From NCBI GenBank assembly GCA_965218425.1, contig OZ244621.1, forward strand, positions 1,824,001 to 1,888,000: DNA of 64,000 nucleotides, given 5' to 3'. Shown one piece after another: positions 7,309 through 9,456 of this stretch. The position numbers and the translations under genes are program-made. Source of the DNA: an uncultured Candidatus Binatia bacterium (GTDB lineage Bacteria; Desulfobacterota; Binatia; UBA9968; CAXXLF01). The stretch's first letter is position 1. Every line of letters starts with the position of its first letter. Under the pieces are notes generated by a model. That model was given only the letters and a program-made list of their open reading frames with translations. It was not told the DNA's origin and ran no database searches.

Positions 7309-7923
7309 TCACTCGTTTTCGTCTTTTTGCTTGAGGAGGTCCACCAAGCGGATGGAATGCTCTTCCATTTGTAGAATAAGAGCTTGAGTTTTGCTTTGTA
7401 GGTACTTGTGCATGACAAGAGTTGGGATAGCTACGCTCAAGCCGGCGTAGGTGGTGATGAGGGCCTGCGAGATCCCGCCGGCAAGGGAGCCGGGGTTGAC
7501 CACCGTCTGAGATGAAATGACCGAGAAGATTTGAATCATGCCTGATATGGTTCCCAACAACCCTAGCAGAGTGCTGACTCCTGCAATGGTTCCCAATCCT
7601 TCTACGAACCGTTCCAGGGAGGCGCTCTCCTGGCGGCCCACTTCCTCTAGGTATTCTTTGATGACTTCCCGTTTTCTGCCGAAGTTTTTGATCCCAACCA
7701 AAAGAATTCGAGCCATGGAGGAAGTGTTTTGCTGACAAAGCAGAGCGGCGTCGGGAAGTTTTTCTCCGCGAATGAGCTGCTCGACGTCACCAATGAAATC
7801 CTGTGGGATGACGAGTTTCCATCTTAGATTCCACAATCTCTCGATAAAAATGGCTAGGGCGGTAATGGAGCAGAGGAGGATCGGATACATGAAGATCCCC
7901 CCTTTGGTGAAGAAATCGACCAT
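7309..7923 (-). CDS. exbB: MotA/TolQ/ExbB proton channel family protein
   Basis: GGIFMYPILLCS, LGLLGTISGMI, LAGGISQALITTYAGLSVAIP. Confidence 0.9.
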   Translation of the reverse strand: MVDFFTKGGIFMYPILLCSITALAIFIERLWNLRWKLVIPQDFIGDVEQLIRGEKLPDAALLCQQNTSSMARILLVGIKNFGRKREVIKEYLEEVGRQESASLERFVEGLGTIAGVSTLLGLLGTISGMIQIFSVISSQTVVNPGSLAGGISQALITTYAGLSVAIPTLVMHKYLQSKTQALILQMEEHSIRLVDLLKQKDENE

Positions 7924-8173
7924 GTCTTACCTCATTGATCGCATGTTCGTAATTTATCTCAACATTTCGGTTATGGCAATAGATTAAGATGCGGTGGCAA
8001 GTCGGTTCCCGTCGAGGGGTTTGCCTCAGGGGCAGTCCTGGTACGGGTCTAAAACGCACTGCTATTTTTTAAAAGCCACAACTATTGAATCTGATGAATG
8101 AATAATAGCAGAAAGATTATGTGCTTCGCGAAATTCATTTTGAAAAAATGTTTTGTAAAATATCATTTTTTTC

Positions 8174-8203
8174 TTGACATACTATTTGTGGTGTAACTAT
8201 AAT
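8174..8203 (+). promoter_or_regulatory. Sigma70-type promoter TTGACA-N18-TATAAT
   Basis: Exact consensus -35 (8174-8179) and -10 (8198-8203) with an AT-rich upstream tract. Confidence 0.75.
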
Positions 8204-8320
8204 TAAAGTGTCTACAAAATGTGGGAGGGGTTTTAAACTAGGTTCTCTTCGCCTGAGCATTTAACTTTCCCTCGTTCTTTCGTAGATGCCCACTGGAGGC
8301 AATCTAGAAAGGAGGTGCCT

Positions 8321-8374
8321 ATGGCAGCGAAGAAGAAGGCAAAAGCGAAGAAGAAGGCAAAAAAGAAAAGATAA
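8321..8374 (+). CDS. 17-aa Lys/Ala-rich micro-peptide MAAKKKAKAKKKAKKKR
   Basis: ATG preceded by AAAGGAGGTG SD; downstream of a consensus promoter and upstream of a 14-bp hairpin. Confidence 0.6.
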   Translation: MAAKKKAKAKKKAKKKR

Positions 8375-8462
8375 TATTGTCTGTGATTGGATGTGGCGTG
8401 GTGGCGTTGGTTTGAACCCTCCATGATCTCAGGCGATAGGGCGGCTGTTCTGGCTACCCAAA

Positions 8463-8504
8463 GGTCAAGGCCCTTCAGTCATTCACGGCGGAAGGGCCTT
8501 GACC
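8463..8504 (+). terminator. Perfect 14-bp hairpin, probable terminator
   Basis: GGTCAAGGCCCTTC-N14-GAAGGGCCTTGACC followed by ATTTCT (weak U tract). Confidence 0.6.
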
Positions 8505-8622: not shown

Positions 8623-9456
8623 ATGAGAAAGCAAATCGGAGAAGTCGTGGTGGATATCTCACCGCCGGAGAAACAAAAATTTAGGTCTCCTGTGATCCTC
8701 GTCCACGGCCTGTGGACCGGAAGTTGGTGTTGGTCCGGCTGGGCCACGCGCTTTTCCAACCTTGGTTGGGAGTGCTGGTCGGTGAACATGAGGGGTCGGG
8801 TTGAAGAGAGCCGTGGAAGGACCGTTTCTCAATTGACCTTTGAGCGGTGCGTAGAGGATCTCAGGGACGTTATTCGTGCTGCCGGACCCAAGGCCGTTTT
8901 AGTGGGCCACAGCTTGGGCGGGATCATGGCCATGGAGGCAGCAGATGATAACAACATCTCGGCACTTATCCTGGTTTCGCCCCCGCTACCAGGCAACGAG
9001 CCCAAGTCCATGGGGCGAAGCCTTCAACTGCTGCGTTTGAAATACTTTTTGCCGGTTGTTCTGCGTTTGCCTATTTGTATCAAGGAGGATGACTTTTCCC
9101 GTCATTGGCTGGGATCTCTGCCGAGGGCTTGCCATGGCGACGTCCTGAGGAGGTTGGTACCGGAGTCCAGTTATTTGGTGCAAAGGCTCTTCAAGCCCCA
9201 GGTCTCCCCGGAGTCGGCGCTAGTAGTTAGGTGTCCAGTTTTGGTAATGGCGGGTATGGATGATCGGGTGGTCCCGGTGGAGGCAGTGCGGCAGAGGGCG
9301 CGACTCTTGGGCGCTGAGTTTAAGGAATATCCCGATCGTGGTCATTGGATGGTGGAGGAAGAGGGTTGGGAGGAGGTGGTGAATGACATTCATCGCTGGA
9401 TTGTTCAGGGGCTCGGGGAAGAGATTCTCCTCGCCGAGTTTCCCGGAAGATCCTAG
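8623..9456 (+). CDS. Alpha/beta fold hydrolase
   Basis: LVHGLW, GHSLGG nucleophile motif, DRVVP, GHW. Confidence 0.9.
   Translation: MRKQIGEVVVDISPPEKQKFRSPVILVHGLWTGSWCWSGWATRFSNLGWECWSVNMRGRVEESRGRTVSQLTFERCVEDLRDVIRAAGPKAVLVGHSLGGIMAMEAADDNNISALILVSPPLPGNEPKSMGRSLQLLRLKYFLPVVLRLPICIKEDDFSRHWLGSLPRACHGDVLRRLVPESSYLVQRLFKPQVSPESALVVRCPVLVMAGMDDRVVPVEAVRQRARLLGAEFKEYPDRGHWMVEEEGWEEVVNDIHRWIVQGLGEEILLAEFPGRS

Follow-up and report, generated by a model that had tools for sequence, protein, structure and literature searches.

What, if anything, is encoded in the gap between a divergent MotA/TolQ/ExbB gene and an alpha/beta hydrolase gene in this Candidatus Binatia genome, and what would its product do? 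The window, i.e., the whole stretch of DNA that was analysed, comprises 64,000 nucleotides, and its numbering is used here. The initial annotation had described in the gap a complete expression unit, with an exact consensus promoter, a leader hairpin next to a strong Shine-Dalgarno (SD) sequence, a 17-codon Lys/Ala frame rich in basic residues, and a perfect 14-bp hairpin. All of these elements are confirmed, the leader hairpin being only loosely conserved among relatives. The unit (8174–8504) and its neighbours are arranged as follows:

7309–7923, minus strand: divergent MotA/TolQ/ExbB gene, adjacent here but not a conserved neighbour of the unit
8174–8203, plus strand: sigma-70-type promoter TTGACA-N18-TATAAT, 12/12 consensus matches, conserved in 20 aligned loci
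8283–8306, plus strand: leader hairpin adjoining the SD, with one bulged base
8308–8317, plus strand: SD sequence, AGGAGG core invariant
8321–8374, plus strand: ORF for the 17-residue Lys/Ala peptide MAAKKKAKAKKKAKKKR, frame kept in relatives
8439–8459, plus strand: 3' hairpin of 7 bp with a conserved loop, two-sided changes at 6/7 pairs
8463–8504, plus strand: perfect 14-bp terminator-like hairpin, arms 8463–8476 with 8491–8504
8623–9456, plus strand: downstream alpha/beta hydrolase gene, frequent but not constant, replaced in several loci

Exact promoters of the form TTGACA-N15–19-TATAAT number seven in the 4.46-Mb genome. Transcription from the present one would be expected to start near 8210, and the product of this near-consensus promoter would be a monocistronic mRNA of ~295 nt. 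In this genome the terminator-like hairpin has a short T-tract and was therefore missed by a terminator scan; the relatives have T-rich tails, and in their alignment 10 of 14 counted pairs of this hairpin show two-sided changes. Rfam covariance models, applied with gathering and E-value thresholds, returned only chance-level miRNA/sRNA matches at the unit, and the tmRNA of this genome lies elsewhere. With 10 Lys and 1 Arg, 11 of the 17 residues of the peptide (65%) are basic.

A DNA search of 60 order-level relatives (class Binatia) matched 30, one of which (G024, family f3) was discarded as a 38-base match lacking a K-rich small ORF. The unit is present in the remaining 29, i.e., in 4/4 genomes of family f1, 25/28 of f2 and 0/28 of f3, and it is considered dispensable because this search did not find it in the 28 f3 genomes. 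A looser pattern matched one of five further genomes. The loci read are the present one and those of 28 of the 29 relatives, G049 being left out since its copy sits at the edge of a contig. In 29/29 loci the SD, the ATG and an open Lys/Ala frame of 12–19 codons are kept, as the initial annotation had anticipated for a genuine gene. Together the 29 peptides contain 426 residues (281 Lys, 103 Ala, 29 Met, 7 Arg, 5 Thr and 1 Pro), and acidic residues are absent. Lys is encoded by both AAG (168) and AAA (113), all four Ala codons are in use, length changes amount to whole codons and synonymous changes are present; this mixed codon usage, together with the synonymous changes and codon-sized indels, shows selection acting on a peptide. 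The upstream neighbour of the unit varies among relatives. We conclude that the locus is a real, previously unannotated mini-gene for a 17-residue Lys/Ala peptide. In the f3 genome G014, the same exbB–hydrolase gap lacks the unit and contains an 18-codon basic ORF without SD (L302:1283–1339), which is possibly a remnant and possibly due to chance.

Four RNA runs from four studies, out of 16 runs listed, were examined, and each yielded one short contig (8231–8401, 8222–8467, 8266–8434 and 8231–8444, at depths of 2, 60, 3 and 214, respectively). All four lie wholly inside the predicted unit and are 95–96% identical to the window; they are assembled contigs from relatives at that level of identity, give neither strand nor ends, and may include DNA. 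They stop short of the next gene and of the flanking genes, which does not imply that the flanks are silent, and they hint, weakly, at a discrete RNA from the unit. The earlier expectation of a transcript confined to the unit agrees with contigs located within 8222–8467, leaving its ends and strand aside; of the claim of a strongly expressed, stand-alone unit, the conserved unit holds, and the expression is better worded as probably good. As judged from the sequence, translation of the micro-gene is highly probable.

Two further features, both absent from the initial annotation, bear on the regulation and fate of this mRNA: a pair of putative boxes for NrdR, the repressor that governs the synthesis of DNA precursors, and long-range pairing between the untranslated regions (UTRs). 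The boxes are the following:

8179–8194, strand not assigned: putative NrdR box 1, within the −35/−10 spacer; 8.9 bits; C4, A6, T11 and G13 in 20, 20, 19 and 20 of 20 loci
8212–8227, strand not assigned: putative NrdR box 2, just past the expected start site; 12.7 bits; C4, A6, T11 and G13 in 20, 20, 18 and 20 of 20 loci

Both boxes contain all four of these bases here and, given the predicted start site, overlap the promoter. Box 2 reaches at least 11 bits in 18/20 loci; box 1, which overlaps the −35 element, falls below 3 bits in 6/20. Box 2 begins 33 bp after box 1, and the intervening spacer of 17 bp lies within the 14–17 bp typical of NrdR box pairs and recurs in the nrdJ promoters of 4/28 relatives. 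The genome encodes nrdR (TIGR00244 above cut-off) and has one ribonucleotide reductase (RNR) match, which we take, from its size and type, to be the class II enzyme nrdJ; boxes lie beside the −35 element of its promoter, and the micro-gene has the same layout. The middle TT of box 1 departs from the published NrdR search pattern; a middle TT is described as tolerated and bound in vitro, with C4, A6, T11 and G13 mattering most (PMC13584703), and a 17-bp spacer as binding and repressing in the NrdR systems tested in PMC12051234.

Scores were obtained with a matrix trained on nrdJ promoters from 28 relatives, with this genome and other members of its genus excluded; a first matrix, built from the boxes of the locus itself, was in the wrong register and circular, and was replaced. 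The micro-gene pair scores 21.6 bits and ranks fourth genome-wide after nrdJ (32.0), a site at C1:1185241 (24.9) and smc (24.9). Four pairs reach the micro-gene score in the real genome versus 0–2 in each of 10 locally shuffled genomes. The second-best pair (C1:1185241–1185288) lies amid foreign-looking genes, and weaker NrdR-like pairs are present at C1:2389334 and 3874428. At the smc promoter (G000:C1:1148910–1148956, L287), the tandem NrdR-like pair is located just upstream of the −35 element. A pair is found in 29/29 full-length smc loci (L261–L289; 31 genomes), including family f3, which lacks the peptide gene, and at each locus 0/100 shuffles reach the real score.

In the NrdR regulon (nrdAB, nrdJ and nrdDG, with single boxes at topA and dnaA), two 16-bp boxes lie about three helical turns apart over the promoter, as they do here, and the micro-gene shows every sequence trait of this regulon that could be judged. 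On the sequence evidence, we regard control by NrdR as likely. The micro-gene and smc are non-RNR genes with pairs; in the data described for E. coli and P. aeruginosa, paired boxes occur only at RNR operons (bioRxiv 10.1101/2025.03.28.645925). If the assignment is true, the paired-box NrdR regulon extends beyond RNR operons. Searches of the open full-text literature turned up no paper describing peptides of this class, nor any that places paired NrdR boxes at a small ORF or at smc; subscription journals lie outside that search, and a 2005 paper on the NrdR regulon may list more targets.

How far does the peptide extend? A pattern for the start of the peptide matched 43/251 Binatia genomes. 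Twenty-four further Binatia loci were translated: 15 encode stand-alone peptides of 19–32 residues, 3 encode KKKAK/KKKAT repeats of 46–73 residues, and 6 are the starts of longer proteins. A scan of named genomes gave at least 120 loci, many with Lys/Ala ORFs of 10–30 residues, notably MATKKKAKKKKH in Acidobacteriota, where near-identical peptide genes also have an NrdR-like box pair. Records titled Syntrophobacter, Chloroflexota or Dormiibacterota have sequence of the Binatia or Acidobacteria type and are not counted as extra lineages. Overall, the length ranges from 10 to 73 residues, Arg is rare and there is no fixed motif; because the sequences are of low complexity, we do not claim homology between the peptides of Binatia and those of outside lineages. 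At least 40 matches on viral contigs were not treated as the Binatia-type unit: they include K-rich ORFs of 21–25 residues that lack boxes, and those inspected are tightly placed between other genes. About 20 of the viral contigs L203–L242 encode ORFs of 17–28 residues, mostly very K-rich and without NrdR boxes. Many of the Terriglobales genomes searched have two matches, and in L307–L316 the second is a mini-gene of the MATKKKAK type, which has a promoter and a terminator to itself but lacks NrdR boxes.

Among non-viral loci found with one peptide pattern and having enough upstream DNA (L185, being too short, was set aside), a pair scoring 13 bits or more at 31–33 bp precedes 33/57 ORFs of up to 17 residues, 0/45 of 18–35 residues and 0/38 longer ones, the 33 boxed loci being mostly kin from two clades, not independent, and including L200 from the unpublished genome G277. 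The longer Binatia versions have no NrdR boxes, and these are also absent from 10/10 second acidobacterial paralogs read. Since nrdR is present in 10/10 genomes tested, 7 of which have box-less copies, NrdR control does not extend to the family as a whole. The acidobacterial copies have a strong box over the −10 region and, in 31/35 loci, a weaker one 30 bp downstream, with a 14-bp spacer; in the two acidobacterial genomes checked, a pair at the same 30-bp spacing stands ahead of a gene that precedes the RNR gene and presumably shares its operon. In two loci, L101 and L169, genes for 10-residue MAKKKAKKKK/R peptides have NrdR-like boxes spaced 31 bp apart, with scores of 24.6 and 10.1 bits; the record of L101 bears the title ANGP1 and is possibly a third lineage.

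The reading that we favour, with chances that we judge to be about even, is that the locus encodes a DNA-binding polycation, similar to a minimal H1 tail, whose production is repressed by NrdR and coupled to replication. The mRNA would be translated into a 17-residue Lys/Ala polycation, in effect a free-standing minimal histone-H1-type tail. NrdR would bind both boxes over the promoter and shut it when dNTPs accumulate; dATP-loaded NrdR is described as repressing once DNA synthesis stops and dNTP levels go up (PMC13584703). Because NrdR would close the promoter at that point, the peptide would be made alongside RNR and SMC condensin, during DNA synthesis, and would coat or neutralise DNA. The boxes would also offer a physiological handle, in that expression would be tied to dNTP status, as for smc.

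The composition of the peptide matches that of H1-like DNA-condensing tails as described in PMC2848022, PMC9239181 and PMC4154389. Chlamydia Hc1/Hc2, Bordetella BpH1 and Pseudomonas AlgP likewise consist of low-complexity Lys/Ala repeats, variable in number and without acidic residues; Hc1 and Hc2 are described as condensing DNA, and BpH1 as expressed in exponential growth and not essential (PMC2848022). However, these are long proteins (Hc2 has 165–237 residues) with other domains, whereas the micro-peptide has 12–19 residues. HC2 (PF07382) and other Pfam profiles gave no match for the 30- and 73-residue versions, and the 17-residue peptide is below the minimum searchable length. The protein Atlas includes the 30-residue version and unnamed clusters resembling it; the nearest named cluster is HC2 (0.82, 20% of members), which serves as a lead only. 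The peptide would thus work like a minimal H1 tail, and by profile it is not an HC2 member. The first 23 residues of a 104-residue SWIB protein of this genome (G000:C1:1987363–1987677, minus strand, L318), a K/A stretch, also closely resemble the micro-peptide, and plastid SWIB-4 is described as having an H1 motif and compacting nucleoids (PMC4154389). The micro-peptide is the tail alone, without a folded domain, and we claim likeness here, not common descent. Of the four roles offered in the initial annotation, the H1/protamine-like one fits best, since one RNA helix of the unit (B:B', below) also frames H1-like versions of 19–73 residues and the promoter has NrdR-like boxes, as does that of smc.

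There is no obvious reason why a polycation of 12–17 residues should prefer DNA to RNA or polyphosphate. The peptide could instead be a general polyamine-like polycation, or an actor in the dNTP pathway that engages polyphosphate, RNA or an acidic NrdJ/NrdR surface, and have no part in chromosome structure. The evidence from the NrdR boxes applies equally here, the restriction to almost only Lys and Ala at freely varying length suits such a role, and the Lys/Ala repeats of AlgP are described as acting on polyphosphate granules (PMC9239181). However, both the predicted co-regulation with smc and the continuity with the H1-like repeats of 46–73 residues point to DNA. We therefore consider this alternative rather unlikely.

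The second feature, the long-range UTR pairing, involves four segments:

8223–8232, plus strand: segment A, 5' leader, complementary to A', near-invariant
8249–8257, plus strand: segment B, complementary to B' and retained in five other families of Binatia
8415–8422, plus strand: segment A', 3' UTR, pairs better with A than with the SD
8428–8436, plus strand: segment B', pairs with B

The crossing order A-B-ORF-A'-B' places two complementary pairs around the ORF. In a 30-row alignment, 92.8% (A:A') and 98.1% (B:B') of the cells pair, and two-sided changes are found in neither helix; two divergent loci outside this alignment show U-A to C-G in A:A' (L296) and A-U to G-C in B:B' (L299). B:B' recurs in families f4 (with C-G to U-A), f11, f18 and f19, the 5' arm being unanchored in 1/25 loci of this survey. 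This helix also frames the KKKAK-repeat peptides of 19–73 residues, and its recurrence links the 17-residue peptide to the 46–73-residue H1-like versions. Nested folding yields one helix, the other or neither (mean P 0.33 and 0.26 across loci), and neither long-range helix in the RNA of this genome (P = 0.04 and 0.0); a pseudoknot would explain the alternation. Since 63 nt separate B from the ATG and 40 nt separate the stop codon from A', ribosomes would not need to open the helices; these would join the two UTRs away from the path of the ribosome and probably make the mRNA more stable. A search for such a 5'–3' clamp in copies from outside Binatia, acidobacterial ones included, gave longest complementary runs not beyond those of shuffles.

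An anti-SD switch, with A' masking the SD, was rejected, as the mean pairing probability is 0.00 over 30 loci and the duplex is predicted at −10.8 kcal/mol, versus −15.8 kcal/mol for A:A'. Type I toxin mRNAs such as hok and aapA enclose a small ORF by long-distance 5'–3' UTR pairing, much like the present unit. A type I toxin–antitoxin system was nevertheless discarded: the peptide is 65% basic and not hydrophobic, a simple promoter scan detected no antisense promoter facing the unit, and sequestration of the SD by A' is not predicted.

Conserved UTRs also raise the prospect that the RNA is the main functional product, as a dual-function sRNA or structural RNA that translation protects or switches. 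The UTR motifs are indeed more conserved than mere spacers, with A, B, A' and B' nearly invariant, the 3' hairpin covaries around its fixed loop, and A' resembles the 3' end of the 16S rRNA of this genome. However, pairing in cis accounts for the conserved segments, with compensatory changes in the divergent loci, and the predicted SD:A' pairing is close to zero. No trans target was found for the dual-function sRNA of the initial annotation, rplL included: elsewhere in the genome, the best matches reach scores similar to those of shuffled RNA, and none of the five that were inspected is a credible target. The acidobacterial copies, moreover, keep peptide and boxes with different UTRs. An RNA-first function is in our view unlikely.

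The very short, basic, Arg-rich ribosomal proteins bS22, eL41 and bTHX have fixed length and motif, and a ribosomal or ribosome-associated protein of this kind would agree with the size and charge of the micro-peptide and, as a weak hint, with the strong SD and the discrete RNA. The peptides of the present family are instead Lys-dominated, with rare Arg, and range from 10 to 73 residues without a fixed motif, the gene was not found in family f3, and NrdR control would be unexpected. A search with the 30-residue version matched no PDB chain up to E = 10, a weak test for low-complexity sequence. A ribosomal role thus seems quite improbable. Poorest in fit among the initially proposed roles, and hardly credible, is a lysine-sensing leader peptide controlling read-through into the downstream gene: in many loci, runs of Lys codons are followed by a terminator and then by a gene on the same strand, but that gene varies and is here an alpha/beta hydrolase, not a biosynthesis or transport gene for the cognate amino acid, no antiterminator is conserved, 88 nt lie between the stop codon and the terminator, and the RNA contigs do not extend into the next gene.

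Genes of 10–20 codons are missed by annotation, and a peptide made up of Lys and Ala would be destroyed in tryptic proteomics; because of these blind spots, a class of bacterial polycations that is widespread, and possibly abundant too, may go unseen. Tentatively, and with doubt on our side, several uncultured lineages may share an NrdR replication programme of RNR, SMC and a histone-tail-like peptide of 10–19 residues from a pseudoknot-clamped mRNA, to which Terriglobales would add an NrdR-free paralog, paralleling the replication-dependent and replacement histones of eukaryotes.

A minor observation concerns the DNA upstream of the unit, where a conserved block at 8070–8145 resembles a divergent minus-strand promoter and leader.
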